Positions 2,452 through 51,984 of a DNA stretch of 64,000 bases are shown here, one piece after another (position 1 is the first letter of the stretch; each line of letters opens with the position of its first letter). The stretch lies in the IMG/VR virus record IMGVR_UViG_3300045988_131721, positions 32,001 through 96,000 of that record; one strand, given 5' to 3'. The DNA is from a virus. A program made the translations under genes and the position numbers. Under the pieces are notes generated by a model. It searched no databases. It was not told where the DNA came from and saw only the letters and a program-made list of their open reading frames with translations.

Positions 2452-3333
2452 ATGAAAGGATATAAAGTATTTAATTCAGATTGGACTTGCAGAGGTTTCC
2501 AATATAAAGTAGGAGAAACATATAAATATGAAGGAAAAATAAGTATATGTGAAACAGGATTCCATTTTTGTAAAAAACTAATTGATTGTTTTAATTATTA
2601 CACTTTTGACCCAGAAAACAAAGTAGCTATAATAGAAGCTACTGGTGAAGTTAAAGAAAGTAATTATTCAAATAATAAATGTGTAACAAATGAAATAAAA
2701 ATAATAAGAGAATTAAACTGGCATGAAGTATTAGATATGGTTAATTTTAATAAAGGTAACACAGGTATTAAAAACACAGGTAGTTATAATTCTGGTAATT
2801 ACAATACTGGTATTAAAAACACAGGCGATTATAATTCTGGAGATTATAATACTGGTGACTTTAATTCTGGTGATTACAATACTGGTAAATTTAATTCTGG
2901 TAGATTTAATACTGGTAAGTTCAATGCAGGAAATTATAACAGAGGCAGTTTTAACATTGGAGATTGTAATTTAGGCAATAAAAAAGCAGGATGCTTTTGT
3001 ACTGATGATAAATATGAAACAATTAAATTATTTAATAAAGAGAGTGATTGGACATTAAACACATGGAAGGATAGTCATGCATTCAGAATAATGAATAATT
3101 ATTTTGAATTAACTTTATGGATTAATGAATATAAAATGACAGATGAAGAAAAAGAAAAACATCCAGATTATAAAGTTGCTAGAGGTTATTTAAAAGAATT
3201 AAGTTATGCAGAGGCATGGAAAAATATGTGGAATCATATAAATGATAAAGAAAAAGAGGTATTTACTTTATTACCTAACTTCGATAAAGATATCTTTAAA
3301 GAAATAACTGGAATAGATATAGAAGAAAATTAA
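2452..3333 (+). CDS. Pentapeptide-repeat protein with conserved N-terminal KVF..DW.CRGFQY..G..Y...CE.GFHFC domain
   Basis: About 13 consecutive 5-residue units (GSYNS GNYNT GIKNT GDYNS GDYNT GDFNS GDYNT GKFNS GRFNT GKFNA GNYNR GSFNI GDCNL). The N-terminal domain resembles one I recall as DUF7666; this needs verification. Confidence 0.6.
   Translation: MKGYKVFNSDWTCRGFQYKVGETYKYEGKISICETGFHFCKKLIDCFNYYTFDPENKVAIIEATGEVKESNYSNNKCVTNEIKIIRELNWHEVLDMVNFNKGNTGIKNTGSYNSGNYNTGIKNTGDYNSGDYNTGDFNSGDYNTGKFNSGRFNTGKFNAGNYNRGSFNIGDCNLGNKKAGCFCTDDKYETIKLFNKESDWTLNTWKDSHAFRIMNNYFELTLWINEYKMTDEEKEKHPDYKVARGYLKELSYAEAWKNMWNHINDKEKEVFTLLPNFDKDIFKEITGIDIEEN
2752..2979 (+). repeat. 15-nt-period coding tandem repeat (pentapeptide repeats)
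   Basis: Repeated AAYWSYGGTRAYTWY-like units encoding residues 101-176 of the 2452-3333 ORF. Confidence 0.8.
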
Positions 3334-10734: not shown

Positions 10735-10821
10735 TTAAAAATAATTAATAAAGGGGTTGATTGAAATGGGGTAAAAATAGATAGGATTGGTGAAACAGGA
10801 GTTAATACATTTGGAAGTAAA

Positions 10822-11544
10822 ATGGTGATAATAAGATATAGGACAAATAAAGATATGGATGTTTATTTTCCAAAATATAATTGGACTTTTTATAATACAA
10901 ATTATATTACTTTTAAAAAAGGTGAAATATTTTGCCCATATGAAAGAAGGTTTTGTAGAGTAGGTTATTTAGGAGAAGGAAAATATAAAATGAGTGAAAA
11001 AGGTAAACATACGAGAACTGGGTCTGTTTGGATGAGTATGTTAAATAGATGTTATAATGAAAAACTTCATATAAAACATCCAAGTTATAAAAAATGTCAT
11101 GTTAGTGAAGAATTTCATAATTTTCAAAACTTTGGTGATTGGGATAATGATAACTATTATGAAATTGAAGGTGAAAGAATGCATTTAGATAAAGATATAT
11201 TAATAAAGCATAACAAAATTTATTCACCAGAAACTTGTATATATGTACCACAAACTATAAATGGTTTATTTACCAAACGTGATAAAGGTAGAGGTGAGTC
11301 GTGTATCGGTACAAGTCCTCTTAAAAATGGTAAATATCAAGTGAACTGTTGTTTACTTAATCCAGAAACTGGTAAGTCTAAAAATGAATATTTGGGATTA
11401 TATGAAACGCAAGAAAAAGGATTTGAGATTTATAAATATTATAAAGAGAGAAATATTAAACAAGTTGCTGATTATTACAAAAATATAATTCCACAGGAAT
11501 TATATCAAGCTATGTATTTTTATGAAGTAGAAATTGATGATTAA
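10822..11544 (+). CDS. Homing-endonuclease-like protein, family 1, copy 2 (N-terminus disrupted)
   Basis: Full family-1 block set. The conserved N-terminal segment GVKIDRIGETGVNTFGSK is in frame upstream, but the ATG at 10766 is out of frame by 1 nt in a G4 run. Confidence 0.6.
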   Translation: MVIIRYRTNKDMDVYFPKYNWTFYNTNYITFKKGEIFCPYERRFCRVGYLGEGKYKMSEKGKHTRTGSVWMSMLNRCYNEKLHIKHPSYKKCHVSEEFHNFQNFGDWDNDNYYEIEGERMHLDKDILIKHNKIYSPETCIYVPQTINGLFTKRDKGRGESCIGTSPLKNGKYQVNCCLLNPETGKSKNEYLGLYETQEKGFEIYKYYKERNIKQVADYYKNIIPQELYQAMYFYEVEIDD

Positions 11545-13413: not shown

Positions 13414-15300
13414 ATGAATAGACATTGCAAAGTTTGTGGTCGAAAGTTAACTGATGGAGATAATATAAAAAGGGAATTATGTAATAAGCATTATTTACAG
13501 ATAAAAAAGTATGGATTTAATTTAGATGATAATCAAAGAAACGAATATGATTTAAATGAATATGAAATAAAAGGCAACATGGCTTATTTGAAATTATATG
13601 ACAATTTTCAAGAGGAATTAAATGAGAAAGCAATTATAGATGATTGTACAGTTGAATTAATAAATAAATATAGATGGGATAAAAATAGAACGTGTATAAC
13701 AACAAATATAAATGGTAAAATAATACCTCTTGAAAATTATATTCTTAATACTAATGAAAAGGTTAATTTTAAAAATGGAAATAATTTAGATTTTAGATTA
13801 AATAATTTAATGGTAATTCACAAAGATGTAAAAGATAAAAAAATAGACAAAAGAAAAAAAGGTAAAATTGATATAATAAGTTATGGATTTTCAAGTCAAC
13901 AAGTTACAGGAAGTAGTTGGGGAGTTTATTATGATAATATTAAAGAAAATAAAAGAGATATGTTACTTATTGAATGTGGGTTAGTACAAGGTAAAGATGT
14001 AGTTACCGATTATAACAATAATAAAAAAATGATTTCTAATATACCGTTTGAAAGATGTGGGCAAATGATATTTTCACACTGTCATCTTGACCACTTAATG
14101 AATGCTGTAGCATCAATAAAAAAAGGATTTAATGGTATAGTATATATGACTAAAACTCAAAGAATATTAGCTGAAAAATTATTGTTAGATGGTGCTTATA
14201 TTCATGAAAGAAATGTAAAAGAATTAAAAAATAAAGGTAAATCACCAGAATTATTTTATGATGAGTCTTCAGTATATTTATTTTTAAATAAAGTTAAAAT
14301 TGTAGAAATGAATGAAAAAATAAAAATCAATAATAATATTACATTTAGATTTAGAAATAACTCTCATGTATTAGGTGCTACTCAAATTGAATTATGGATT
14401 ACTAAGCCTAATAATCAAATAAAACATATTTTATATACAGGTGATTTAGGTACAAATCACAATTTTGAATTCCAACCTTTTCTAAAACAAAATGAGATAA
14501 TCAAGTCATGTGACTTAGCATTATTTGAAAGTACATACTCAGATATAAAAAGAAGTTTTACTAAAAAAGATTGTATAATAGAAAGAGAAGATTTTAAAAA
14601 TACATTATTAGAAACTATAAAAAACAAGTCAAGATGTTTAGTACCGACTTTCTCTTTTAGCAGAGGACAAATGTTAATGTGTTGGATTTATGATTGGTTT
14701 AAGGATTTAGAAGATAATTTTCAAGTTATAATAGATAGTAAACTTTTCCAAGAAATTAATAATGCATATACTCAAATATTAGAAGATGAAGAATTAGAAT
14801 ATTGGTCAACAGTTATTTCATGGGATAAATTTAAATTTGTTGGAGATTATGAAGAAACATTAGAATTATCTACTAAAAACGATGGTATACCAAGAATAAT
14901 TTTATCTTCTTCCGGATTTATGGAGGCTGGTAGGGTAAGAACTTGGGCAAGTAAAATACTAAATAATAAAGATGATACAATATGTTTTGTTGGTTATTCA
15001 TCGGCAAATAGTCTTGCAAATAAAATACAAAATCAAAAAGAAGACGTATTTATTATAGATGGTATAAAATGTATTAGGAGATGTAATATAAAAATATACA
15101 GAACATTTTCATCTCATATACAATATGATGAACTTTTAGATTATTTTTATAGATTAAAAACAAACAAAATAATACTTCATCATGGTGAATTAGATTCAAA
15201 AAATGAATTTAAAAAATATGCTACAAAATTATTAAGAGAAAAAGGAATAACTACTAAAATAATATGTACAGATAAAGATAATACTGAATTTAGTTTATAG
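13414..15300 (+). CDS. Metallo-beta-lactamase-fold nuclease (beta-CASP-like) with N-terminal zinc finger and degenerate HNH-like segment
   Basis: HxHxDH motif FSHCHLDH, later GDLG, ESTYSD, PTFSFSRGQ and LHHGE. N-terminus CKVCG...CNKH, and YILNTNEKVNFKNGNNLDFRLNNL resembling HNH_3 without the His. Confidence 0.65.
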   Translation: MNRHCKVCGRKLTDGDNIKRELCNKHYLQIKKYGFNLDDNQRNEYDLNEYEIKGNMAYLKLYDNFQEELNEKAIIDDCTVELINKYRWDKNRTCITTNINGKIIPLENYILNTNEKVNFKNGNNLDFRLNNLMVIHKDVKDKKIDKRKKGKIDIISYGFSSQQVTGSSWGVYYDNIKENKRDMLLIECGLVQGKDVVTDYNNNKKMISNIPFERCGQMIFSHCHLDHLMNAVASIKKGFNGIVYMTKTQRILAEKLLLDGAYIHERNVKELKNKGKSPELFYDESSVYLFLNKVKIVEMNEKIKINNNITFRFRNNSHVLGATQIELWITKPNNQIKHILYTGDLGTNHNFEFQPFLKQNEIIKSCDLALFESTYSDIKRSFTKKDCIIEREDFKNTLLETIKNKSRCLVPTFSFSRGQMLMCWIYDWFKDLEDNFQVIIDSKLFQEINNAYTQILEDEELEYWSTVISWDKFKFVGDYEETLELSTKNDGIPRIILSSSGFMEAGRVRTWASKILNNKDDTICFVGYSSANSLANKIQNQKEDVFIIDGIKCIRRCNIKIYRTFSSHIQYDELLDYFYRLKTNKIILHHGELDSKNEFKKYATKLLREKGITTKIICTDKDNTEFSL

Positions 15301-30442: not shown

Positions 30443-31214
30443 AAAAACAACAGATAGAACTGGTGAGAAAAGATTAAACAACTTCGGGAGTGAAATGGTT
30501 ATCGTAGATTATAGAGGATGTATGGACGTTGATGTATACTTTCCAGAATACGATTGGGTTTATAAAAGTGTAACATATCAAAAGTTTAAAGACGGAGGTG
30601 TAAAATGTCCATATGAAAGAAGTGTATATGGGGTTGGCTATTTTGGGAATGGTGAATATAAAGCGTGGGAAAATGGTAAAAATACTAGAATTTATAATAC
30701 GTGGTATGACATGTTGAAAAGATGTTACGATAAAGAATATCATAAAAAACAACCTACATATAAAAATTGTACAGTTTGCGATGAATGGTTAAACTTCCAA
30801 AATTTTGCTAGGTGGTATGAAGAGAATTATTATGAAATAGAAGGTGAAGTAATGTGTTTAGATAAAGATATTTTATTTAAAGGTAATAAAATTTACAGTC
30901 CTGAAACTTGCGTAATTGTACCACAAGCTATTAATAAATTATTCACTAAGAGACAAAATGATAGAGGTGATTCGGCTATAGGTACGAGTCCTGTAGATGG
31001 TAAATATATGGTAAGATGTCACATGATTAATCCTAAAACTGGTAAATCTAAAAGAAAATATTTAGGAATTTATGATACTCAAGAGAAAGCATTTAAAATA
31101 TACAAGTATTACAAAGAAAAGAATATAAAAATGGTAGCAGATTATTTCAGAGAACAGATACCAGACAAATTATATGATGCACTATATAATTATGAAGTAG
31201 AGATAGATGATTAA
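30435..31214 (+). CDS. Homing-endonuclease-like protein, family 1, copy 3
   Basis: Full family-1 block set including N-terminal DRTGEKRLNNFGSEMVIVDY. Confidence 0.65.
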   Translation: MSRKTTDRTGEKRLNNFGSEMVIVDYRGCMDVDVYFPEYDWVYKSVTYQKFKDGGVKCPYERSVYGVGYFGNGEYKAWENGKNTRIYNTWYDMLKRCYDKEYHKKQPTYKNCTVCDEWLNFQNFARWYEENYYEIEGEVMCLDKDILFKGNKIYSPETCVIVPQAINKLFTKRQNDRGDSAIGTSPVDGKYMVRCHMINPKTGKSKRKYLGIYDTQEKAFKIYKYYKEKNIKMVADYFREQIPDKLYDALYNYEVEIDD

Positions 31215-31238: not shown

Positions 31239-32102
31239 ATGAGTGAAAATAAAAAAGAGAAATATAGTTTTAGTAAACTTAGTTGTTATGGGAATTGTCC
31301 TAAAAATTATTATTTAACTTATATAGAACATGTTAAAAGAAGTCAAAATATTTATGGGAGTGCAGGTGGTGATGCTCACGAACTGGTACAAGCCCTAGAA
31401 ATAGGAGAAATGACAAATGAACAAGCCGTTGAAGAATGGGAATCAAAAATGGATATATATGAATTCTGTGGTGAAGCTAATTTTCCAACAATTAATGCTA
31501 AGAAAAATTATATAACAGATGTAACGGCTTATTTCAGAAATTTTAAACCAATACCTATAAATGGTAGGGAAGTATTAATAGAGAAGGAGTTTGAAGTTGA
31601 GATTGAAGGAATTATTATTCGTGGATTCGTCGATTTAACATTGATTGACCACAACAAAAAAGAGATTGAAGTGATTGATTATAAAACATCAAGCAAGAGT
31701 GGATTTACAAATAAAAATCTAATTAAAAAATGTTATCAATTGATTTTATATTCATTAGCATTACAAAAGTTATATCCAAATTATAAAATAGTTAGAAATG
31801 CCTTTGATATGTTGAAGTATGGAAAACATAAAGAGACAGGTAGAGTTAAGGAAAGAAAAGATATTCCACCAGGAAAAGAAAAAGAGTATGAACGTTATTT
31901 TATTGAAATACCATTTAATCAAGAAAATATAGACTTATTTAAAAAATTTGTAAATAAATCTATGGATGATATTAATAAGGCTAAAGAAGAAGATTTATGG
32001 GATGTTAATAAAACTAATTTCAGTTTCTTTTGTAAATTCTTATGTTCTACAGCAGAATATTGTCAAGAATATCAAAAATATAATAAAACTAAAAGGAAAT
32101 AA
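31239..32102 (+). CDS. PD-(D/E)XK nuclease, Cas4/RecB-exonuclease-like with Cys cluster
   Basis: N-terminal CYGNCP. FVDLTLID...EVIDYKTS (D...D/ExK), QLILYSLAL (QxxxY), C-terminal FFCKFLCSTAEYC. Confidence 0.7.
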   Translation: MSENKKEKYSFSKLSCYGNCPKNYYLTYIEHVKRSQNIYGSAGGDAHELVQALEIGEMTNEQAVEEWESKMDIYEFCGEANFPTINAKKNYITDVTAYFRNFKPIPINGREVLIEKEFEVEIEGIIIRGFVDLTLIDHNKKEIEVIDYKTSSKSGFTNKNLIKKCYQLILYSLALQKLYPNYKIVRNAFDMLKYGKHKETGRVKERKDIPPGKEKEYERYFIEIPFNQENIDLFKKFVNKSMDDINKAKEEDLWDVNKTNFSFFCKFLCSTAEYCQEYQKYNKTKRK

Positions 32103-32907: not shown

Positions 32908-33690
32908 ATGGGAAGAGATAAAGTTGATAGAACAGGGGAAAGGAGTTGTAATAATTTCGGTAGTGAAATGATAATTGTTAAATGTAATAATGCACGTGAC
33001 ATAGATGTATATTTTCCTCAATATGATTGGATTGCTAGGAATAAACAATATAATCATTTTAAAAATGGTAAAATTAGTTGTCCATATGAACCTAGAGTAT
33101 TTGGAGTAGGATATATTGGTGAAGGTGAATATAAGGTATGGGAAAATTGTAAGTCTACTAGAGCCTATAAAAGTTGGAATCATATGTTAGAAAGGTGTTA
33201 TTCTGATAAATTTCATAAAAGAAATCCTACTTATGAAGATTGTGAGATTGATGAATCATTTCATAATTTTCAAAATTTTGGATATTGGGATGAAAACAAT
33301 TACTATCAAATCGAAGGAGAAAGAATGCATTTAGATAAGGATATACTCCACAAAGGAAACAAAATATATAGTCCCGAAACTTGTATTTATGTACCACAAA
33401 CTATAAATTCATTATTTATTAAAAGACAAAATGATAGAGGAGAATCAGCTATTGGTACAAGTCCTCATAAATGTGGGAAATATACAGTGTATTGTAGTTT
33501 AATCAATCCAGAAACAGGTAAATCAAAGAGTGAATATTTAGGTTTATATGACACACAAGAAAAAGGATTTGAGATTTATAAATACTATAAAGAAAGGAAT
33601 ATAAAACAAGTTGCAGATTATTATAAAGGACAGATACCCGAAAAGTTATATATAGCTTTATATAATTACGAAGTTGAAATAGACGATTAA
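32908..33690 (+). CDS. Homing-endonuclease-like protein, family 1, copy 4
   Basis: Full family-1 block set. Lies immediately upstream of the DNA polymerase gene. Confidence 0.65.
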   Translation: MGRDKVDRTGERSCNNFGSEMIIVKCNNARDIDVYFPQYDWIARNKQYNHFKNGKISCPYEPRVFGVGYIGEGEYKVWENCKSTRAYKSWNHMLERCYSDKFHKRNPTYEDCEIDESFHNFQNFGYWDENNYYQIEGERMHLDKDILHKGNKIYSPETCIYVPQTINSLFIKRQNDRGESAIGTSPHKCGKYTVYCSLINPETGKSKSEYLGLYDTQEKGFEIYKYYKERNIKQVADYYKGQIPEKLYIALYNYEVEIDD

Positions 33691-37714: not shown

Positions 37715-38456
37715 ATGATTGAAAAAAATGTAATATATAATACAGACTGTTTTTCCTTAATGGAACAAATGGTTGAAGAAAATTTTAAAGTGGATGTTAT
37801 ACTGACTCAAAGTCCTCCCTAGCCTATCTAAGGAGGACTACATAAATCTATTTCAACACTTTAATAAAATATTAATTGATAATGGAACAGTGTTAATTGA
37901 AATCCCATATAATAGAAAAAAACCAAGTTATGTGTTTCAAATAATAAATGAAATAGAAATGAATACGGAATTTATGTTAGGTGACATTATATATTGGAAT
38001 AAAACTGACATTCTTCCAGATAATATGAGTTGTAATCAATCAACAAAAAATATATCACAAATACATTTATTTTGCAGAAAGAATGAATTTAAAACTTACA
38101 AGACTAATAAAATAGTTAAAAGCCACAGAGAGAACGGACAAAGAACATATACTAATATATCTAATATAATTAATGCACCAGTTAGAGATAAAGGTGTTAA
38201 AACATTCAATCATAAAGTATTTTCAACTGAATTAGTTAAAGAATTGTTATATAAATATGTGAAAAAAAGAGGAATTGTCTTTGATTGTTTTCTTGGGACT
38301 GGAACTGTGGCAGTAGCAACAATTAATAAAAATATTTATTATATTGCAAGTGAAATAGACAAGGAGCAAGTAGAGTATGCTAGAATAAGAGTGTTGAAAA
38401 GAAAGAAAGAAATAAAGAAGGAGTATTATAAAAATTATAAAAGAAAGAAGGAATGA
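37715..38456 (+). pseudogene. Beta-class DNA methyltransferase split by a +1 frame change at CCC TAG (pseudogene or recoded gene)
   Basis: N-terminal part MIEKNVIYNTDCFSLMEQM..VDVILTQSPP-stop (TAG 37820-37822). The +1 frame continues SLSKEDYINLFQHFNKILIDNGTVLIEI...FDCFLGTGTVAVA (motif I). Confidence 0.6.
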
Positions 38457-38460
38457 TATT

Positions 38461-39237
38461 ATGGGGAGTAAAATTGACAGAACTGGTGAGAAAAATATTA
38501 ATAATTTTGGAAGTGAAATGGTTATTGTTGAATACAAAAAATACTCTGATATAGATGTTTATTTCCCAGAATATGACTGGACAACTAAAAATAATACATA
38601 CCAAAATTTTAAAAATGGTAAAATCAAATCACCTTATGATAAAAGCGTATTTGGTGTTGGATATTTAGGGGAGGGAGAATATGAGAGTAGAGAAAATGGT
38701 AAGCTTACTAAAGTTTATGCTACTTGGTGTCATATGTTAGAAAGGTGTTATTATGAAAAATATCACAAAAGGTATCCTACATATATAGATTGCAAAGTAA
38801 GTGAAGAATGGCATAACTTTCAAAATTTTGCTAAATGGTATGAAAACAATTATTATGAAGTTGAAGGAGAAATAATGTGTTTAGATAAGGATATTTTGAT
38901 AAAACATAATAAAATATATAGTCCAGAAACTTGTATTTTTGTGCCACAAACAATTAATACTTTATTTGTTAAAAATAATAAAAATCGAGGCAATTCAGTT
39001 ATAGGTACAAGTCCTATGAATGGTAAATATATGGTGACTTGTAGTATGTTCGACTTTAAAACTGGTAAGTCTAAAAATGAATATTTAGGAAGGTATAAAA
39101 CACAAGAAAAAGCATTTGAAGTATACAAATATTATAAAGAAAAGAATATTAAACAAATAGCAGATTATTTTAAAGAACAAATACCTATTCAACTATATAA
39201 TACTTTATATAATTATATAGTTGAAATTACAGATTAG
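38461..39237 (+). CDS. Homing-endonuclease-like protein, family 1, copy 5
   Basis: Full family-1 block set. Starts 4 nt after the methyltransferase stop. Confidence 0.65.
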   Translation: MGSKIDRTGEKNINNFGSEMVIVEYKKYSDIDVYFPEYDWTTKNNTYQNFKNGKIKSPYDKSVFGVGYLGEGEYESRENGKLTKVYATWCHMLERCYYEKYHKRYPTYIDCKVSEEWHNFQNFAKWYENNYYEVEGEIMCLDKDILIKHNKIYSPETCIFVPQTINTLFVKNNKNRGNSVIGTSPMNGKYMVTCSMFDFKTGKSKNEYLGRYKTQEKAFEVYKYYKEKNIKQIADYFKEQIPIQLYNTLYNYIVEITD

Positions 39238-39300
39238 AAATAATTAATAAATTAAAAAAACTATTGACATTAATCACCTCATGTGTTATTATCTATATAA
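39238..39300 (+). promoter_or_regulatory. Class I sigma-A-type promoter
   Basis: AATAATTAATAAA 39239-39251, TTGACA 39263-39268, 17-nt spacer, TGTTATTAT with TATTAT at 39286-39291. Confidence 0.6.
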
Positions 39301-39303
39301 GAG

Positions 39304-40428
39304 GTGATTAATGTGAAAATAATAAATAAAAATAATATTTATAAAGAAAATGAAAAAGAATTTTTCGTACTTAAAACTTTTAAAGACGTAATAGATTTAG
39401 GAAATAACAAATATCTCACACACCTATCGGCAGAAGAGATTGGTAGAATGTGGGATAAGGAGGAATTGACATATTATACTCCTACTCAACGTGGAGTGAA
39501 ATATAAGAAAATTAATAATAAAATAAAAGAAGAAACAATAACAAAACAATCAAACATATTAGAAATGCAGAATTTAATATTAAAAGGACAACTAGGAACT
39601 ACTCAATTAACATTCAATGTGCTTGATAATGGTAAAGGATTAATTAATTATAATAAAGATAAAAGAGAACTTTTTATTAAAGGAAGTATAGCTTTATTAG
39701 ACGGAAATCATAGGGTTAAAGCATGTTACCGAGCTTATAAATCTTCTCAAATACTTGGCGATGAAGAGTTAATTAAGAATGTGAAAAATACTATATTCCC
39801 CGTTATAATTTTACATTATGAAGATTCAAAAGCCAAGATTGTATTTTCTCAAATGTCTAAAGGATTAAAAATAAGTAAATCTTTAGCTGAATCATTCGAT
39901 AGTACAAAAGCTAGCAATCGAATCATATTAAGATTAAATGAACATTCTGTTCTTAAAGGTATGATTGACGTAAGAAAAAATAGCGTAAGCAAAGATGACA
40001 TGGAACATATAGTAACTTTTAATACCCTAAAAATGGCTATCGATACTTCGTTCCCCTCAATTAAAAATGAATCGGAAGAGAAGGAAATATATATGTTTTT
40101 ATCTTCATTTTTCAATGAACTATTTTGTTTATTCCCCCACATGAAAGATGGAGAAGGACGTATATTAATTAGAAAAGAATCATTAGAATGTGAAGATATT
40201 ATGTTCCATGCTTATATATCACTAGCAGAAGATTTATACATGAAGCGAAAATCTGGCAAGTGGAAAGAAGAGTTAAAAGCTTTAGAAGAAATAGATTTTT
40301 CAAAATCTAATAGTATTTGGGATTGCATAATTAAAGAAGGGAAAGAATCTTACATCACAATTAACACTAAACAATCAAGAGCATTAATGATAAGAGTGTT
40401 TAAACAAGAATTCTATAGTAATTTATAA
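39304..40428 (+). CDS. DGQHR-domain protein (DndB-like, ParB/Srx fold)
   Basis: PTQRGV, ALLDGNHRVKA (DGQHR-type motif), FPVIIL and FSQMSKGLKISKSLAESFD parallel the DndB-family layout. About 370 aa. The exact start is uncertain (GTG). Confidence 0.55.
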   Translation: MINVKIINKNNIYKENEKEFFVLKTFKDVIDLGNNKYLTHLSAEEIGRMWDKEELTYYTPTQRGVKYKKINNKIKEETITKQSNILEMQNLILKGQLGTTQLTFNVLDNGKGLINYNKDKRELFIKGSIALLDGNHRVKACYRAYKSSQILGDEELIKNVKNTIFPVIILHYEDSKAKIVFSQMSKGLKISKSLAESFDSTKASNRIILRLNEHSVLKGMIDVRKNSVSKDDMEHIVTFNTLKMAIDTSFPSIKNESEEKEIYMFLSSFFNELFCLFPHMKDGEGRILIRKESLECEDIMFHAYISLAEDLYMKRKSGKWKEELKALEEIDFSKSNSIWDCIIKEGKESYITINTKQSRALMIRVFKQEFYSNL

Positions 40429-40433
40429 TTTCA

Positions 40434-40465
40434 TCACCATCTTTACAGATGGTGAATTTTTATTA
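40434..40465 (+). terminator. Rho-independent terminator
   Basis: TCACCATCT-TTAC-AGATGGTGA followed by ATTTTTATT. Confidence 0.8.
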
Positions 40466-40467
40466 TT

Positions 40468-40522
40468 CATAGGTAATTTTAGACTAACAATTGTTAATAC
40501 TGTAATATAAGGAAGGAGGTAG
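40468..40522 (+). promoter_or_regulatory. Class II phage promoter cassette, copy 8
   Basis: CATAGGTAATTTT, 12 nt, GTTAATA, CTG, TAATATAAGGAAGGAGG. Confidence 0.55.
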
Positions 40523-40528
40523 TTGATT

Positions 40529-41464
40529 ATGGATAATCAATGTAAATATAAAAGGATATACGAGGAAAAAGCCAATGGAGAGCTAGAATGTGTAGGATTA
40601 ATAAAAAAAGGAGAAACAATAAAGGTTGTAAAAGAAATTACACCACAACAAAAGTTATTCCTTAGTAATAAGAATGAATTAACTCAACATAATAAACAGT
40701 TAGGAGGTTTTGTTCAAGTGTGCTATGTTAAAAACCAATTATTATTTAATGATTTAAATTTGAATCAAGCAACTATAAGTAGATTTTTGTATTTAGCAAC
40801 ATATATAGATTACAACGACAGAGAAGAAAATGTATTGGTTAAATATACTAAAAATAATAAAATAGAATATATGAATAAAAGAGACGTGAAATATTTATTA
40901 AATTTAGGAGACACGGCGTTTAAGTCTTTTTATAAAGAAATAAAAGAAAAAGAATTATTATTTGAAGCTAATGGTAAGATATATTTAAACCCAGTATACG
41001 TGAATAAAGGTAAAAGTAATTTTAAAGATAAAGAATATGCAAGAATGTTTATAGATACGACAAGAGAGTTATATGAAAATTGTAAGCCAAGACAACACAA
41101 ACATTTAAGTTATGTTTATCAATTATTACCATTTTTACATTATGAAACTAATATATTATGCAAGAATCCAGAAGAAATAGATATTAATAAATTAGATAAA
41201 TTACATTTCACTGATATATGTAGAATGTTAAATTTAAGTAATGATAAAAAAACAATGGATAAATTAAAAAGAGATTTGTTTAAATTTTATATAACTAGAG
41301 ATGATGAGAAATATTATTTTTTATCATATGTCACTATAAGACAAGAAATTGGAACAAGAAGTTATTATGTTGTGAATCCTTATGTTGTATGGAAAGGTAA
41401 AAATTTACAAGTAGCTAAAGATATAATAGGTTTTTTAACATTAGAACATATGAAAGGTAGATAA
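40529..41464 (+). CDS. Putative winged-helix replication-initiator-like / origin-binding protein
   Basis: No catalytic motif. The pattern LNLNQATISRFLYLATYID...MNKRDVKYLLNLGDTAFKSFYKEIKEKELL resembles plasmid/phage Rep wHTH domains. Iteron-like repeats lie directly downstream. Confidence 0.35.
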   Translation: MDNQCKYKRIYEEKANGELECVGLIKKGETIKVVKEITPQQKLFLSNKNELTQHNKQLGGFVQVCYVKNQLLFNDLNLNQATISRFLYLATYIDYNDREENVLVKYTKNNKIEYMNKRDVKYLLNLGDTAFKSFYKEIKEKELLFEANGKIYLNPVYVNKGKSNFKDKEYARMFIDTTRELYENCKPRQHKHLSYVYQLLPFLHYETNILCKNPEEIDINKLDKLHFTDICRMLNLSNDKKTMDKLKRDLFKFYITRDDEKYYFLSYVTIRQEIGTRSYYVVNPYVVWKGKNLQVAKDIIGFLTLEHMKGR

Positions 41465-41466
41465 AT

Positions 41467-41521
41467 TCAAAGTTAGGTATTCTACGACTAAAATCCAAAT
41501 CAAAGTTAGGTATTCTGCGAC
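41467..41521 (+). repeat. Two 22-nt direct repeats (iteron-like), 33-nt period
   Basis: TCAAAGTTAGGTATTCTACGAC (41467-41488) and TCAAAGTTAGGTATTCTGCGAC (41500-41521). Followed by about 55 nt of almost pure A/T. Confidence 0.75.
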
Positions 41522-41663
41522 CATATTTATTTTCAAAATAATATATAATTAATATAATATTTGTTATAAAATAGCCTTTTAACTCTTCTATATTCTATAG
41601 CACTAGATTAGATATAAGATATAGTTGAGATACAGTATAGAAAACTAAAATTAATTAATATTT

Positions 41664-41677
41664 ACCCCTAGAGGGGT
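41664..41677. repeat. 14-bp perfect GC-rich palindrome
   Basis: ACCCCTAGAGGGGT within the longest non-coding stretch of the plus arm (41465-41795). Confidence 0.7.
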
Positions 41678-41795
41678 ATAGTTTGAAAAAATAATTGCTC
41701 TTTGATTATTTTAGAAAACGAAAAAGGGTGGTGGAATTTTAATAAAATTTTCATTCATTAAATATTAATATACTAATATAAGGAAAGGAATTGAT

Positions 41796-42578
41796 GTGAA
41801 AATGGTAGCAAAAATTAATAGAAAAGGAGAAAAGAATTATAACACTTTCGGAAGTGAAATGATAATTACAGAATATAGAGAACGTATGGACATTGATATA
41901 TATTTTCCAGAATATGATTGGACTTTTAAAGGAGCAACATATCAATCTTTCAAAAACGGTAGAATTGCATGTCCTTATGAAAGAAGATATTATGGAGTTG
42001 GTTGTATTGGAGATGGAGAATACAAAGTAAGTGAAAACGGTAAACTAACTAAGGTTTATAACACTTGGCATCATATGTTGAGAAGATGTTATGATGAAAA
42101 ATACCACAAAAAACATCCTACGTATATTACTTGTGAAGCATCTGAGGAATGGTATAATTTTCAAAACTTTGCAGAATGGTACGAGGAAAATTATTATGAG
42201 GTAGATGGTGAAAGAATGGAATTAGATAAAGATATAATAATTAAGCATAACAAAATATATAGTCCAGAAACTTGTATTTTTGTACCTCAAACAATAAATT
42301 TATTATTTGTTAAATGCGATAGGAGTAGAGGGGAATCAGTTATTGGAACAAGCCCATATCGAGATAAATATAGAGTAAATTGTTGTTTAATCAATCCTCG
42401 AACTGGTAAATCAAAGAGTGAATATTTAGGGTTATACGACACTCAAGAGAAAGCGTTTGAAGTGTATAAATATTACAAAGAAAAGAATATAAAAGAAGTA
42501 GCTGACTACTTCAAAAGACAAATACCAAGGGAATTGTATTATAGTATGTGTACTTATGAAGTAGAAATAGATGATTAA
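41796..42578 (+). CDS. Homing-endonuclease-like protein, family 1, copy 6
   Basis: GTG start. Full family-1 block set. Preceded by a partial class II leader (ATTAATATACTAATATAAGGAAAGG). Confidence 0.65.
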   Translation: MKMVAKINRKGEKNYNTFGSEMIITEYRERMDIDIYFPEYDWTFKGATYQSFKNGRIACPYERRYYGVGCIGDGEYKVSENGKLTKVYNTWHHMLRRCYDEKYHKKHPTYITCEASEEWYNFQNFAEWYEENYYEVDGERMELDKDIIIKHNKIYSPETCIFVPQTINLLFVKCDRSRGESVIGTSPYRDKYRVNCCLINPRTGKSKSEYLGLYDTQEKAFEVYKYYKEKNIKEVADYFKRQIPRELYYSMCTYEVEIDD

Positions 42579-43696: not shown

Positions 43697-45955
43697 ATGA
43701 TAGTTAAAAAAAGAAATGGAAATATGGTGGCATTTGATAAAAACAAAATAATAGTAGCTATTCAAAAAGCAATGTTAGAAGTAAATATAAATACAGATAG
43801 AGCTTATGATATAACTGAAAAGGTGTTAGATAAAATATCAGATAAAAATGAAATATCTATAGAAGAAATCCAAGATATTATTGAAGAAACTTTAATAGAA
43901 AAAAATTATCCTACAGTAGCTAAAGCATATATACTTTATAGAGAAAAAAGAAAAAGAACTAGAGAGAACCAAGCTAGACTATATGAAGAATCTCAAAAAC
44001 AAATATCAGAAATTATGGCAATGAAAAACATAGAAAATTCAAACGCAAATGTGGATGAGGCTTCATTTAGTGGCAAAAATTCCAAGGTAACTTCTTATTT
44101 TTTAAAAGAATATGCTTTGAATAATTTAATGAGACCAGAGGTTGCAAAGGCACATAGAGATGGTTTATTATACACTCACGATTTAGATAATTATGCAAGT
44201 GGGATGCATAATTGTTTATTTATAGATTTTGAAGATTTATTTAATAATAAAGGTGGTTTTACAACTAGAAATGGTGATGTAAGAAAACCAAATGATATTA
44301 TGACATTTTTTCAATTAGTAGCAGTAACATTTCAATGTGCCTCTCAATGTCAATATGGTGGAATCGCTAGTAATAAAATAGATTATGATGCATCTCCTTA
44401 TGTAGCTATAACCTTTAGAAAAAGTTTTAGAAATGCTTTAATGGATATAGATGGAATAAGTAAAGAACACGCAGAATTAATAATGAAAAATATAGAAGAT
44501 ACCAACGGAGACATTATAAAATTAGAAAATGAAAAGCTTAAATTATTTTATCCTAAACATTACAAAGTTGCAGAAAGACATACTATAGAAAAAACCATGC
44601 AAGGAGCAGAGTCTTTATACCATAACCTTAATACTCTTGAGTCTAGAGCAGGAAGTCAAGTTCCTTTTACAAGTATAAATTTTGGGACAGACACATCACC
44701 AGAAGGAAGATTAGTATCTAAGGCGTTATTGACAGCTAGTATAAATGGTATTGGTAAATTTAATAAAACATCAATATTCCCAATAAGTATATTTAAATAT
44801 GCAAAAGGAATAAATGACAAAGAAGGAACTCCAAACTACGATTTAAAATTATTAGCTTTAGAATCTTTATCAAAAAGAATATATCCTAATTTTTGCAATG
44901 TTACAATAGAGGGTGAAGGTGATATAAATGACCCAGATACCCAATCAGCAACTATGGGATGTAGGACGAGATTAGGGTATGATGTAAATGGTATGGGTTG
45001 GCACAAATCTGGCAGAGGCAATATAACACCTGTAACATTGAATCTTGTTGATATGGGAATTAGACATGGTATCTGTTTAGGTAAAAGAGATGTTGCAGAT
45101 ATTGACGGATTTATGGATGAATTAGAAGAGAATCTAAAATTATCTGAAACAGCATTATTAGATAGATATGAATGGATTTGTTCTCAAAAATCTAAAAGTG
45201 GATTCTTTACTCATCACAACGGGTTAATGAAGAATCTCTTAGGAAGAACGCTGAAAGATGAAGAAGATGTAAAAGAATCGATGAAACATGGCACATTAGC
45301 TTTAGGATATATAGGAATTGCAGAATGTATGTATGCTATGTTTGGTGAAACTCATACATATAATAAAAATGTTTATAATTTTGCATTAAAAATAGTACAA
45401 AGAATCAATTCATTTGCAAAAGAGTGTGTAGAAAGAAATCATCTAAATTTTAGTTGTTATGCTACTCCAGCGGAGGGTAGTTGTTTTACATTAAGAAATA
45501 AATTAGTTGAAAAATATGGTATTATAAAAGGTGTTACAGATAGAGAATACATAACTAACTCACACCATATACCTGTGTATGAAAAAATATCTATTAAAAA
45601 CAAAATAGATTTAGAAGCACCTTTCAGTAAATTAGCGACTGGTGGATATATTTTATATGTTGAATTAGAATCATCTTTTATGAATAATATAACTGCTGTT
45701 GAAAAAATAATAGATTATGCAATGAGTAAAGATGTTTATTATTTTGCATTAAATTTTCCAATAGATACTTGTATGAATTGTGGATATTCTTCAGAAATAA
45801 AAGAAAACTGCCCAAAATGTGGCAGTAATAAAATTGAAAGACTTAGACGTGTCACAGGTTATTTAACTACTGATTATTCTAAATTTAACAATGGTAAAAT
45901 AGCTGAAGTAGAAGATAGAGTTAAACATTCTGTTGGTGATATTAATGAATATTAG
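43697..45955 (+). CDS. nrdD: Anaerobic ribonucleoside-triphosphate reductase (class III)
   Basis: N-terminal ATP-cone (VKKRNGNMVAFDKNKI), C-terminal zinc ribbon CMNCGY...CPKCGS, glycyl-radical motif RRVTGYL. Confidence 0.9.
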   Translation: MIVKKRNGNMVAFDKNKIIVAIQKAMLEVNINTDRAYDITEKVLDKISDKNEISIEEIQDIIEETLIEKNYPTVAKAYILYREKRKRTRENQARLYEESQKQISEIMAMKNIENSNANVDEASFSGKNSKVTSYFLKEYALNNLMRPEVAKAHRDGLLYTHDLDNYASGMHNCLFIDFEDLFNNKGGFTTRNGDVRKPNDIMTFFQLVAVTFQCASQCQYGGIASNKIDYDASPYVAITFRKSFRNALMDIDGISKEHAELIMKNIEDTNGDIIKLENEKLKLFYPKHYKVAERHTIEKTMQGAESLYHNLNTLESRAGSQVPFTSINFGTDTSPEGRLVSKALLTASINGIGKFNKTSIFPISIFKYAKGINDKEGTPNYDLKLLALESLSKRIYPNFCNVTIEGEGDINDPDTQSATMGCRTRLGYDVNGMGWHKSGRGNITPVTLNLVDMGIRHGICLGKRDVADIDGFMDELEENLKLSETALLDRYEWICSQKSKSGFFTHHNGLMKNLLGRTLKDEEDVKESMKHGTLALGYIGIAECMYAMFGETHTYNKNVYNFALKIVQRINSFAKECVERNHLNFSCYATPAEGSCFTLRNKLVEKYGIIKGVTDREYITNSHHIPVYEKISIKNKIDLEAPFSKLATGGYILYVELESSFMNNITAVEKIIDYAMSKDVYYFALNFPIDTCMNCGYSSEIKENCPKCGSNKIERLRRVTGYLTTDYSKFNNGKIAEVEDRVKHSVGDINEY

Positions 45956-47545: not shown

Positions 47546-47619
47546 TCAATGCAAGGTGATGTTATGAGCAAAAAATTGATAGGATAGGAGAAAAAAGATT
47601 TAATAATTTTGGGAGCGAA

Positions 47620-48342
47620 ATGATTATAGTTAGATATAAAAAAGCAAAAAATATAGATGTTTATTTTCCTCAATACGATTGGATTGCCAAAAATAAAACT
47701 TATCAGAATTTTAAAAACGGTCAAATAAGTTGTCCATATGAGAAAAGATATTTTATGATTGGCTATTTAGGTGAAGGAGATTATAAATCAAGAGAAAATG
47801 GTAAAGATACTAGGGTTTATGATACTTGGGTTAATATGATGCAGAGATGTTATGATTCTAAATATCACGAAAAATATCCTACTTATAAAGATTGTGGTGC
47901 ATCTGATGAATTTCATAATTTTCAAAATTTTGGAATGTGGGATGGTGATAATTTCTATCAAGTTGAAGATGAAGTAATGTGTCTTGATAAAGATATTTTA
48001 ATTAAACATAACAAAATCTATTCACCCGATACTTGCATTTATGTGCCTAAAACAATTAATAGTTTATTTACTAAGAGACAAAATGATAGAGGTGTCTCGG
48101 CTATTGGAACAACTCCTACTGAAAATGGGAAATACGAGGTACAATGTTGTTTAATTAATCCTGAGACTGGAAAATCAAAACAAGAACACCTAGGTACTTA
48201 TGATACCGAGTTAGAAGCCTTTGAAGTTTACAAATATTATAAAGAAAAAAATATTAAAATGGTTGCAGACTATTATTTTGGAAAAATATCTGAAAGACTT
48301 TACAATGGTATGTATAATTATATAGTAGAAATAGACGATTAA
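47620..48342 (+). CDS. Homing-endonuclease-like protein, family 1, copy 7 (N-terminus disrupted)
   Basis: Full block set. The conserved IDRIGEKRFNNFGSE segment is in frame upstream, but the ATG at 47564 is out of frame by 1 nt in an A6 run. Confidence 0.6.
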   Translation: MIIVRYKKAKNIDVYFPQYDWIAKNKTYQNFKNGQISCPYEKRYFMIGYLGEGDYKSRENGKDTRVYDTWVNMMQRCYDSKYHEKYPTYKDCGASDEFHNFQNFGMWDGDNFYQVEDEVMCLDKDILIKHNKIYSPDTCIYVPKTINSLFTKRQNDRGVSAIGTTPTENGKYEVQCCLINPETGKSKQEHLGTYDTELEAFEVYKYYKEKNIKMVADYYFGKISERLYNGMYNYIVEIDD

Positions 48343-51204: not shown

Positions 51205-51984
51205 ATGGGAAGAAATAAAATTAATAGAACAGGAGAGAAGAATGTTAATAATTTTGGAAGTGAAATGGTAATTATTAAATATAATAATGCACATGATATA
51301 GATGTTTATTTTCCAAAATATAATTATACAGCTAGAAATAGAGAATATGGAAGTTTTAAAAAGGGGAATGTCAAATGCCCATATGATAGAACTGTGTTTG
51401 GAATAGGTTATGTTGGTGAAGGAAAATATAAAGTGAGTGAAAATTGTAAACTAACTAGAGCCTATAATACATGGATGCATATGTTAGAAAGATGTTATGA
51501 TAAAAAACTACATGAAAAACGTCCCACTTATATTGGATGTACAGTATCAGAAGAATGGCATAACTTTCAAAATTTTGCTAAATGGTATTATAATAGCTAT
51601 TATGAGATAGAAAGTCAAAAAATGCATTTAGATAAAGATATTTTAATTAAAGGAAATAAAATTTATAGTCCAAAAACTTGTATATTTGTACCAGAAAGAA
51701 TAAATACTTTATTTACTAAACGACAAAATAAGAGGGGAGAATCGGTTATTGGAACAAGTCCTAAAAATGGCAAATATGTAGTGCAATGTCATTTAATCAA
51801 TCCTAAAACAGGAGAATCTAAACAAGAACATTTAGGCTATTATAATACACAAGAGAAAGCTTTTGAAATATACAAATACTATAAAGAGAAAAACATTAAG
51901 GAAGTGGCAGATTATTATAAGGAACAGATACCTCAAATTCTTTATAACGCTTTATATAATTATGAAGTTGAAATATATGATTAG
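51205..51984 (+). CDS. Homing-endonuclease-like protein, family 1, copy 8
   Basis: MGRNKINRTGEKNVNNFGSEMVIIKY plus the full block set. Last gene of the plus-strand arm. Confidence 0.65.
   Translation: MGRNKINRTGEKNVNNFGSEMVIIKYNNAHDIDVYFPKYNYTARNREYGSFKKGNVKCPYDRTVFGIGYVGEGKYKVSENCKLTRAYNTWMHMLERCYDKKLHEKRPTYIGCTVSEEWHNFQNFAKWYYNSYYEIESQKMHLDKDILIKGNKIYSPKTCIFVPERINTLFTKRQNKRGESVIGTSPKNGKYVVQCHLINPKTGESKQEHLGYYNTQEKAFEIYKYYKEKNIKEVADYYKEQIPQILYNALYNYEVEIYD

Follow-up and report, generated by a model that had tools for sequence, protein, structure and literature searches.

The stretch analyzed here, referred to as the window, comprises 64,000 nucleotides of the virus record IMGVR_UViG_3300045988_131721 (positions 32,001 to 96,000 of that record), and the region of interest lies at positions 39,238 to 41,795 of the window, between two HNH homing endonuclease genes (HEG1 and HEG2). 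Within this region, a gene for a protein of the DndB Pfam family with its own promoter and terminator is followed by a gene for a 311-amino-acid (aa) DNA-binding protein and by a non-coding stretch with two 22-nt direct repeats, an AT-rich spacer, a box containing a tandem heptamer, and a GC-rich palindrome. A first-pass annotation made from the letters alone had described the region as a self-contained plasmid-type replicon with a ParB-fold partner. All sequence features on which that description was built (promoter, open reading frames (ORFs), terminator, repeats, AT tract, palindrome, and the promoter-like class II motif) were recovered in place. Their coordinates are collected in Table 1.

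The window has a GC content of 25%, and nearly all genes up to about 52 kb are found on the plus strand. Among its products are a DNA ligase, a DnaB-like helicase, ThyX, NrdD, and numerous HNH homing endonucleases. A megablast search with 7 kb around the region returned no nucleotide-level match to any deposited phage. Viral contigs of 79 to 137 kb from two metagenomes (L004-L012) were close kin, and kinship at the protein level extended to the big plasmidial C. difficile phages phiCD211 and LIBA2945 and to SPbeta. Homologs of the 311-aa protein were assigned to Romboutsia, Clostridioides, Terrisporobacter, and Clostridium. Judged by this relatedness, the window derives from a large clostridial phage, and its family is that of the SPbeta/phiCD211-like clostridial phages of about 130 kb. 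An Rfam scan of the whole window gave no matches at gathering thresholds, so that positions 41465-41795 are not accounted for by a known RNA family, and ARAGORN found no tRNA.

The 311-aa protein had been described as resembling a winged helix-turn-helix (HTH) protein, and this was borne out by an AlphaFold2 model with several winged-helix units and a predicted local distance difference test (pLDDT) of 90. The protein belongs to phrog_9501, annotated as "unknown function", and its family comprises 1477 clusters at 50% identity (E up to 0.001). The Rep-type assignment of the first-pass annotation found no backing in profile searches, as neither Pfam nor NCBIfam gave a match to the protein, and a profile search of the PDB returned chance-level matches only, without any Rep. 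Foldseek with the model against the PDB retrieved generic winged-helix regulators at a template modeling (TM) value of about 0.18 and no RepE, pi, or RepA structure, and against BFVD one good but unnamed match along with weak ones named "HTH" or "replication". Searches of Pfam, NCBIfam, and PHROGs with distant or longer family members were informative only for two nuclease fusions, one member with an N-terminal GIY-YIG domain (P0133) and one with a C-terminal Vsr/DUF559-like domain (P0185).

A feature that recurs with this gene is the pair of direct repeats. In the window, shuffled sequences are expected to yield no match to the 22-nt repeats, and the 64 kb contain no further copy of the motif. 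Exactly two direct repeats of 14-29 nt with a period of 31-33 nt followed the gene in 13 of 15 distinct modules, compared with 18 of 2000 control windows (0.9%); the controls were random 440-nt windows from loci without a 311-aa gene, counted if their best repeat had a 31-33-nt period. Repeat pairs near the gene were present in phiCD211, L013, L015, L016, L023, L027, L029, L044, L053, L054-57, and Paenibacillus phage Tripp. They were also seen in two of the three small plasmids examined, in a scaffold from a gut phage, and at many metagenome loci. The Tripp homolog shares 25% identity with the 311-aa protein, and the Tripp genome holds one repeat pair in total. The repeats mostly begin within a few nt of the stop codon, and their sequence differs between modules. 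In a distant subfamily and in a Macrococcus plasmid, they overlap the gene's own promoter.

The proteins of the window and of contig L080 are 86% identical, and their substitutions cluster in two HTH regions (aa 116-135 and 238-270) and in the C-terminal tail. At the DNA level, the repeats of the two differ while the AT tract and box downstream of them are identical, a pattern that would be expected of protomers that contact one repeat each through two winged-helix units. Because the gene-plus-repeat architecture is conserved and protein and repeats co-vary, the 22-mers are read as cognate sites, and they are almost certainly the binding sites of the 311-aa protein. The earlier proposal that the product of the adjacent gene binds these repeats is thus supported by the comparison of modules, while the iteron function given to them is not the one favored here.

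The sequence beyond the repeats is also patterned. The box, consisting of AACTC and two heptamers, is kept in six divergent modules, in which it lies about 55-75 nt past the second repeat and is followed by a GC-rich hairpin. The two heptamers change together, with TTATATA, TTATGTA, or TTATATC occurring twice in place of the TTCTATA of the window. The polarity from repeat to box is kept even in L105, where the unit is upstream of the gene and inverted. The AT-rich tract occurs in the window but not in all modules, and the corresponding spacer of Tripp is GC-rich. The GATA-rich short repeats described from the same stretch are visible by eye but were not scored by Tandem Repeats Finder. As a recurring promoter class in the window, the heptamer box was rejected, as it is present there in a single copy.

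The gene and its repeats form a transferable segment whose borders are apparent from related contigs. With blastn, homology to L004-L012 ends at 40543, past the class II motif and the opening codons of the gene, and resumes at 41745, ahead of the class II motif of HEG2. The N-terminus of the 311-aa protein is chimeric: it opens with MDNQCK, six residues that stem from the replaced 402-aa protein (MENQCK...), whereas other members of the family begin with M-x-x-YKRI. Remnants of a YonV-like gene persist at the edges of the segment. From these alignments it can be concluded that a cassette consisting of the 311-aa gene and about 280 nt after it replaced a YonV-like P-loop gene and that the promoter and start codon of the latter were reused. 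The cassette is located at the same place in L078-L080. A 67%-identical cassette occurs in the lineage of L023, L061, and L081-83, with the final 50-57 codons of the same YonV-like gene behind it, and in L013 and L111 the cassette is followed by a GIY-YIG::YonV_C gene.

The DndB-like gene does not travel with this cassette. Within 8 kb of the DndB-like gene, none of the nine related contigs (L004-L012) carries a 311-aa gene, and the slot past the DndB terminator is occupied there by genes for a thymidine kinase, the 402-aa P-loop protein (phrog_2467), a cytosine or other methylase, or TnpB. Members of the 311-aa family were found without a DndB-like gene nearby at more than 40 loci, and in the 131-kb genome ERR11042533_40 a distance of 54 kb separates the DndB-like gene, at about 26 kb, from the gene for the 311-aa homolog, at about 80 kb. 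Because relatives carry the DndB-like gene and the 311-aa gene independently, the "island" is read as a chance juxtaposition, and by the same comparison the region is a mosaic of three unrelated things, namely the DndB-like gene, the 311-aa cassette, and the two HNH genes. Hence the single self-contained island of the first-pass annotation was not upheld; a replicon confined to positions 40529-41744 is possible, though not favored. In a phage genome rich in homing endonuclease genes, adjacency does not make a functional island, as the relatives split its parts.

What the cassette does is suggested by its surroundings in other genomes. In phiCD211, the gene directly after it encodes a phage sigma factor (phrog_5767, E 3e-139) and heads co-oriented genes for HU, an exonuclease, the terminase, and structural proteins, an arrangement that parallels yonO-yonN-(late promoter)-yonK-yonJ-yonG-yonF in SPbeta. 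The region of SPbeta upstream of yonK, where YonO starts transcription, showed no comparable repeats or heptamer box. In L023, L029, and L053-57, genes for homologs of the sigma factor follow the cassette within about 1-3 kb, and in L076 and L077 the cassette lies between a gene for a YonJ-like exonuclease and those for YonG and the terminase. In Tripp and in Bacillus phage 268TH002, it occupies the right end of the early region, at the early-late junction and near a sigma-factor gene; in Tripp, this is 20 kb from the DnaC, DnaB, and primase genes and just before the late genes. The window has a promoter-like TTTTCA-17-TATAAT after the second repeat.

Given these contexts, a role of the cassette in transcription control, as a regulator combined with its target site, is tentatively favored over a replication origin. 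The 311-aa protein would bind as two protomers with two winged-helix units each on the 22-bp repeats, which are three helical turns apart, and the bound protein would act on a promoter or leader 10-80 nt downstream (AT tract, heptamer box, and hairpin) to control the co-oriented genes beyond. As to the direction of control, we infer activation or antitermination, with a logic as in the RinA/Ltr activators or the lambda Q cassette.

Several findings weigh against such a role. A consensus promoter follows the repeats only in some modules (the window, L013, L029, and phiCD211), and the heptamer box matches no known promoter class and has no second copy in the 64-kb window. In L105, the unit of repeats and box faces non-coding DNA and convergent ORFs. 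The 6.7-kb plasmid pTP3 carries a homolog and no other recognizable Rep. Ltr and Q proteins are far smaller than this protein of about 300 aa, which shares no homology with either. The window itself has no sigma-factor/terminase operon after the repeats, unlike phiCD211, L023, L029, L053-57, L076, L077, and Tripp; the genes downstream encode a homing endonuclease and proteins of nucleotide metabolism and are served by class II promoters of their own. With such motifs ahead of HEG2 and nrdD, the regulatory role of the cassette may be vestigial in the window.

Among the known regulators, Ltr proteins have direct repeats ahead of terS as their binding sites, and phages can exchange the unit of ltr gene and promoter (PMC3753634). 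The cassette resembles the Ltr group (RinA, ArpU, LtrA-C) in that the specificity of the protein co-varies with its repeats and in that cognate repeats lie upstream of the late operon in several modules. However, the Ltr proteins are small and basic, without relation in sequence or fold to a family of about 300 aa with several winged helices, and the cassette has exactly two repeats of about 20 bp at a period of 31-33 bp; no match between the 311-aa protein and the RinA, ArpU, or LtrA-C families was found in Pfam or PHROGs. In the Q cassette, the Q gene is followed by a promoter, a terminator, and the late genes, and the site bound by Q21 is a direct repeat made up of two subsites (bioRxiv 10.1101/651190). 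Lambdoid Q and the cassette share a layout in which the gene of the regulator adjoins its binding element and is followed by a promoter, a short leader, a hairpin or terminator, and late genes in the same orientation. In contrast, the proteins are not homologous, Q uses 8-bp subsites inside or close to the promoter, and the hairpin of the cassette has a weak T run, with no sigma-dependent pause element identified.

The main competitor of transcription control is a plasmid-type or phage replication initiator, for which the 22-mers would be iterons and the AT tract and heptamer box the unwinding or priming site, with the DndB-like gene excluded; in plasmid prophages, the cassette would then serve lysogenic maintenance. 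In phiCD211, a plasmid prophage (PMC5786514), the gene follows those for an actin-like ParM and a small ParR-like protein, and LIBA2945 has 11/22-nt iteron-like repeats in the same slot. The circular plasmid pTP3 encodes a 36%-identical homolog, behind whose gene lie two 18-nt repeats with a 31-nt spacing and 630 nt of non-coding sequence, and the remaining five ORFs of the plasmid match no known Rep. Searching with the pTP3 protein added no further small plasmids, and no Rep was found in L105, a 5.7-kb contig with a 123-nt terminal overlap. Iteron-type initiators (RepE/pi/RepA, RepE of pAMbeta1, and Rep of ColE2) combine tandem winged helices with asymmetric repeats of about 20 bp, an AT-rich tract, and an origin abutting the stop codon. 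The repeats of the cassette likewise abut the stop codon with no terminator between, as in pAMbeta1- and ColE2-type origins, and repeats of about 20 bp suit a monomer with tandem winged helices such as RepE. Sub-threshold matches to Phage_rep_O (in 6 of 54 members and in the pTP3 protein, E 4.6e-4), to RepL (E 4e-4), and to HTH_36 point in the same direction, as do weak BFVD structural matches named "Replication initiator". Against an initiator stands the absence of any significant match to a Rep family (Rep_3, RepA_N, Phage_rep_O, RepL), along with that of RepE, pi, and RepA from the Foldseek results, and every module has two repeats only. The contexts are mostly transcriptional: the Tripp cassette is remote from the replication genes and beside a sigma gene, and that of L076/L077 lies among counterparts of SPbeta late operon genes. 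Two of the three small plasmids carry another Rep candidate, two paralogous modules can occur in one genome, and the GC skew of the window does not shift at 41.5 kb. Because the nine related contigs lack the gene near the DndB-like gene, the cassette cannot be the essential origin of the phage family, and on balance an initiator is considered less likely than transcription control.

Two further alternatives were weighed alongside it. The cassette might be a selfish mobile unit, a DNA-binding module of the kind used by homing endonucleases with the repeats as its recognition or immunity region and no role in phage transcription or replication; recombination would have carried it into YonV-like genes and other sites. 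Its position varies among related phages, in or beside YonV-like genes in at least three lineages (the window, L023/L083, and L013/L111), it often adjoins homing endonuclease genes, several copies per genome are possible, and the family includes the fusions to GIY-YIG and Vsr-like nuclease domains. However, the 311-aa protein has neither a nuclease domain nor a nuclease fold, the nuclease fusions are possibly artefacts of gene calling or recombination, and, with 8 HNH copies in 64 kb, homing endonuclease genes are so frequent in these genomes that adjacency is expected by chance. The architecture of repeats, spacer, and box is kept over deep divergence (down to the 25% identity of Tripp), which argues for a cellular or phage function and leaves a purely selfish unit improbable. 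Least credible, to the point of being nearly dismissed, is the partnership originally proposed, in which the DndB-like protein would act as a ParB-type partner of an initiator, the 311-aa protein, on the repeats. Its sole support is the adjacency of the two genes in the window and in L078-L080. The two families are otherwise never neighbors, as the nine contigs, the more than 40 loci, and the 54-kb distance in one genome illustrate, a strong terminator and separate promoters lie between the genes, and in L080 a thymidine kinase gene stands between the DndB-like gene and the cassette.

Whichever of transcription control and replication initiation applies, the cassette follows a known principle, that of a site-specific DNA-binding protein carried with its cognate repeats, and on the homology evidence it belongs to a large undescribed family. 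It is rather probable that phrog_9501 proteins with two repeats, and usually the heptamer box, constitute an undescribed class of portable control cassettes of phages and plasmids, acting either as switch regulators of late genes and sigma factors or as pairs of initiator and origin. For the large SPbeta/phiCD211-like phages, the cassette provides a candidate family of switch regulators at late promoters. If it does switch on sigma-factor/terminase operons, it would fill a gap in the late-gene timing of SPbeta-like and big plasmidial C. difficile phages, and should it be an origin, phage-plasmids would have a replicon of a new kind. In either case, an uncharacterized DNA-binding family now has a probable binding site in dozens of natural specificity variants, which may yield orthogonal protein-operator pairs for Clostridia and Bacilli.

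Additional repeats were observed in two of the C. difficile phages. In phiCD211 (L002), a second and different pair of 15-nt repeats (AGAACATAGAGGGTA), 32 nt apart, brackets a TG-TATAAT promoter at 2198-2244, just upstream of the 311-aa homolog and after the ParR-like gene. In LIBA2945 (L074, 7495-7762), the slot that corresponds to the 311-aa homolog of phiCD211 is taken up by two reverse-strand genes and a 600-bp region in which the 11/22-nt iteron-like repeats are accompanied by two 29-nt palindromic repeats; this may be the maintenance region of that plasmid prophage.

Table 1. Features in and around the region at positions 39,238 to 41,795, in window coordinates.
Feature	Position	Strand	Basis or remark
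N6_N4 DNA methyltransferase gene, conserved +1 frame break	37715..38456	+	Pfam PF01555, E 1.9e-14
HNH homing endonuclease gene HEG1, independent insertion	38461..39237	+	phrog_953, E 6e-61
Sigma-70-type promoter of DndB-like gene	39264..39292	+	11/12 match, upstream TG
Predicted anti-Shine-Dalgarno hairpin	39270..39311	+	5' arm in promoter spacer, 3' arm = ribosome-binding site
DndB/DGQHR-like protein, YopQ family, 371 aa (probable start)	39313..40428	+	Pfam, phrog_5732, homologs; ORF open from 39304
Intrinsic terminator of DndB-like gene	40434..40465	+	9-bp stem (40434-40455), then T run
Class II motif and ribosome-binding site, inherited from replaced resident gene	40494..40513	+	homology to relatives through 40543
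311-aa multi-winged-helix DNA-binding protein, phrog_9501 family	40529..41464	+	phrog_9501, E 1e-57; AlphaFold2
Replacement cassette, segment absent from L004-L012	40544..41744	+	blastn vs L004-L012
Direct repeat 1, putative binding site of 311-aa protein	41467..41488	+	22 nt
Direct repeat 2, putative binding site, 33 nt after repeat 1	41500..41521	+	22 nt
AT-rich spacer, 10% GC	41522..41580	+	promoter-like TTTTCA-17-TATAAT at 41530-41558
Conserved box, AACTC and tandem heptamer (TTCTATA x2)	41581..41599	+	alignment of 6 divergent modules
GC-rich palindrome/hairpin TACCCCTAGAGGGGTA	41663..41678	.	similar hairpins after box in other modules
Class II motif of HEG2, outside cassette	41765..41784	+	homology to relatives resumes at 41745
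HNH homing endonuclease gene HEG2, HEG1 paralog	41796..42578	+	phrog_953, E 2e-57
Class II motif sites (9 of 12 listed)	2336, 17590, 19897, 27698, 32876, 35527, 40494, 41765, 43550	+	
HNH paralogs	3-725, 10768-11541, 30453-31211, 32908-33687, 38461-39234, 41802-42575, 47569-48339, 51205-51981		

The DndB-like gene was placed in the DndB/ParB superfamily by the first-pass annotation, which is confirmed by the Pfam family DndB (PF14072, ParB/Srx clan): the ORF at 39304-40428 matched with E 3.8e-31 and 108.8 bits (cutoff 29.1) over residues 59-369. It also matched phrog_5732 (E 9e-58), and PF14072 was present in 45 of 45 homologs. Its translation contains the motifs PTQRG, LLDGNHRVKA, and FSQMSKGLKISKSL, with DGNHR rather than DGQHR as the form of the central motif. 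As every homolog is about 371 aa long, the GTG at 39313 is probably the true start, giving a protein of 371 aa. The protein shares the fold family and the QR / DGxHR / FxxM motif layout of DndB and DGQHR proteins but falls below both curated cutoffs and is not a DndB equivalog, reaching 49.9 bits against a cutoff of 328 for TIGR03233 (the DndB equivalog of dnd systems) and 35.6 against 58.85 for TIGR03187 (the DGQHR domain). No dndACDE or other dnd genes were found among the neighbors scanned (about 37-46 kb and ten larger ORFs elsewhere in the window); the gene is surrounded by methyltransferase and homing endonuclease genes, thyX, and nrdD. Because the curated cutoffs were far missed and no dnd genes are nearby, the protein is classified as a YopQ-type member of the DndB Pfam family and not as a phosphorothioation DndB.

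With tblastn, the protein aligned to SPbeta yopQ at 24% identity over 84% of the query (E 2e-9). The C. difficile phage LIBA2945 encodes a homologous "DGQHR" protein in the order DnaE, DGQHR, NrdD, directly upstream of nrdD, and the order in L147 is YopP-like, DndB-like, NrdD. In ERR11042533_40, the DndB-like gene lies between a gene for a YopP-like protein with an integrase domain and nrdD, which recalls the yopP-yopQ order of SPbeta. In the nine related contigs, the order of methyltransferase gene, optional homing endonuclease gene, and DndB-like gene was kept in all nine together with the promoter, at protein identities of 65-97%. The DndB-like gene is, by its homology and gene order, a conserved core gene of this phage family and the counterpart of YopQ.

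SPbeta YopQ is the product of a core gene in the yopM-yopR lysogeny operon, is ParB_N_Srx/DndB-like, and belongs to the same Pfam family as the window protein; the gene is conserved in large temperate Firmicute phages, and the L147 homolog follows a YopP-like gene as in SPbeta. The window gene differs in that it follows a methyltransferase gene and not yopP, has no adjacent MrpR/YopR gene, and shows low identity. Conserved in SPbeta phages, yopQ is expressed as RNA in lysogens, and its function is unexplained (bioRxiv 10.1101/2021.11.22.469490; PMC8612738); the window gene is classed as a new member of a known but functionally unexplained family. DndB has been described as an ATP-dependent repressor and a DndB-like protein as a binder of ATP or GTP (PMC12704722), and by analogy the window protein is probably a nucleoside-triphosphate-dependent DNA-binding regulator.

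The expression signals of this gene are conserved. Its promoter, with TTGACA (39264-39269), a spacer of 17 nt, and TATTAT (39287-39292), is the best match within 37.6-43.8 kb, and the -35 hexamer is invariant across seven orthologous regions. The 11 nt directly after this hexamer (39270-39280) are the exact complement of the ribosome-binding site at 39301-39311. When the seven orthologous regions (the window and others among L004-L011) were folded sequence by sequence, the RNA folds all buried the Shine-Dalgarno sequence, with energies of -13.4 to -17.8 kcal/mol and z-scores of -4 to -5.6, and the differences among orthologs were U-G wobbles or compensatory shifts that are valid on plus-strand RNA only. 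Transcripts from the gene's own promoter are expected to start at about 39299 and to be without the 5' arm of the hairpin. By analogy to IS10, in which fold-back inhibition works by the same logic, the hairpin would silence translation of read-through RNA from the methyltransferase and homing endonuclease genes; the DndB-like protein would then be made solely from its own host-type promoter, with read-through transcripts untranslatable. This apparent fold-back insulation of DndB/YopQ translation offers a testable clue to the timing of an unexplained core protein.

A second type of expression signal is the class II motif, TTAATA-N3-TAATATAAG(GA), which had 12 matches in the window, all on the plus strand and mostly just upstream of ORF starts. 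The ORFs it precedes include p313, HEG2, and NrdD. This distribution suggests that the motif probably represents a phage-specific promoter class.

The methyltransferase gene precedes the DndB-like gene in the window and in all nine related contigs examined and lies outside the cassette. In the window, it is interrupted by a frame break at CCC-TAG (37817-37822), where 35 codons end in ...SPP-TAG and the remainder continues in the +1 frame. The CCT-CCC-TAR break is kept in L004, L005, L007, L010, and L011, with TAG or TAA and differing flanks, and the orthologs in L008, L009, and L012 are more divergent and uninterrupted. The break resembles a site of programmed +1 frameshifting at CCC-UAR, of the kind found in prfB; a split gene that has been conserved is the other reading.

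HEG1 and HEG2 share 69% aa identity. The slot of HEG1 between the methylase and DndB-like genes is empty in L004-L006, L008, L011, and L012 and filled in L007, L009, and L010, and HEG1 is regarded as an independent insertion because it is present in some related contigs and absent from others. Both are identified by homology as free-standing homing endonuclease genes that were inserted independently. At least eight paralogous HNH genes, 62-69% identical to HEG1, occur in the 64 kb, and their presence varies between related contigs.

Two minor observations were made elsewhere. In L011, about 300 nt (14243-14546) interrupt the nrdD coding sequence between residues 420 and 421 (compare nrdD of the window at 43697-45955), which may be an intron or an intein-less insertion. 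Within the ORF at 2452-3333 of the window, a periodic 30-nt repeat at 2830-2900 indicates a repetitive protein, possibly of collagen-like or pentapeptide type.

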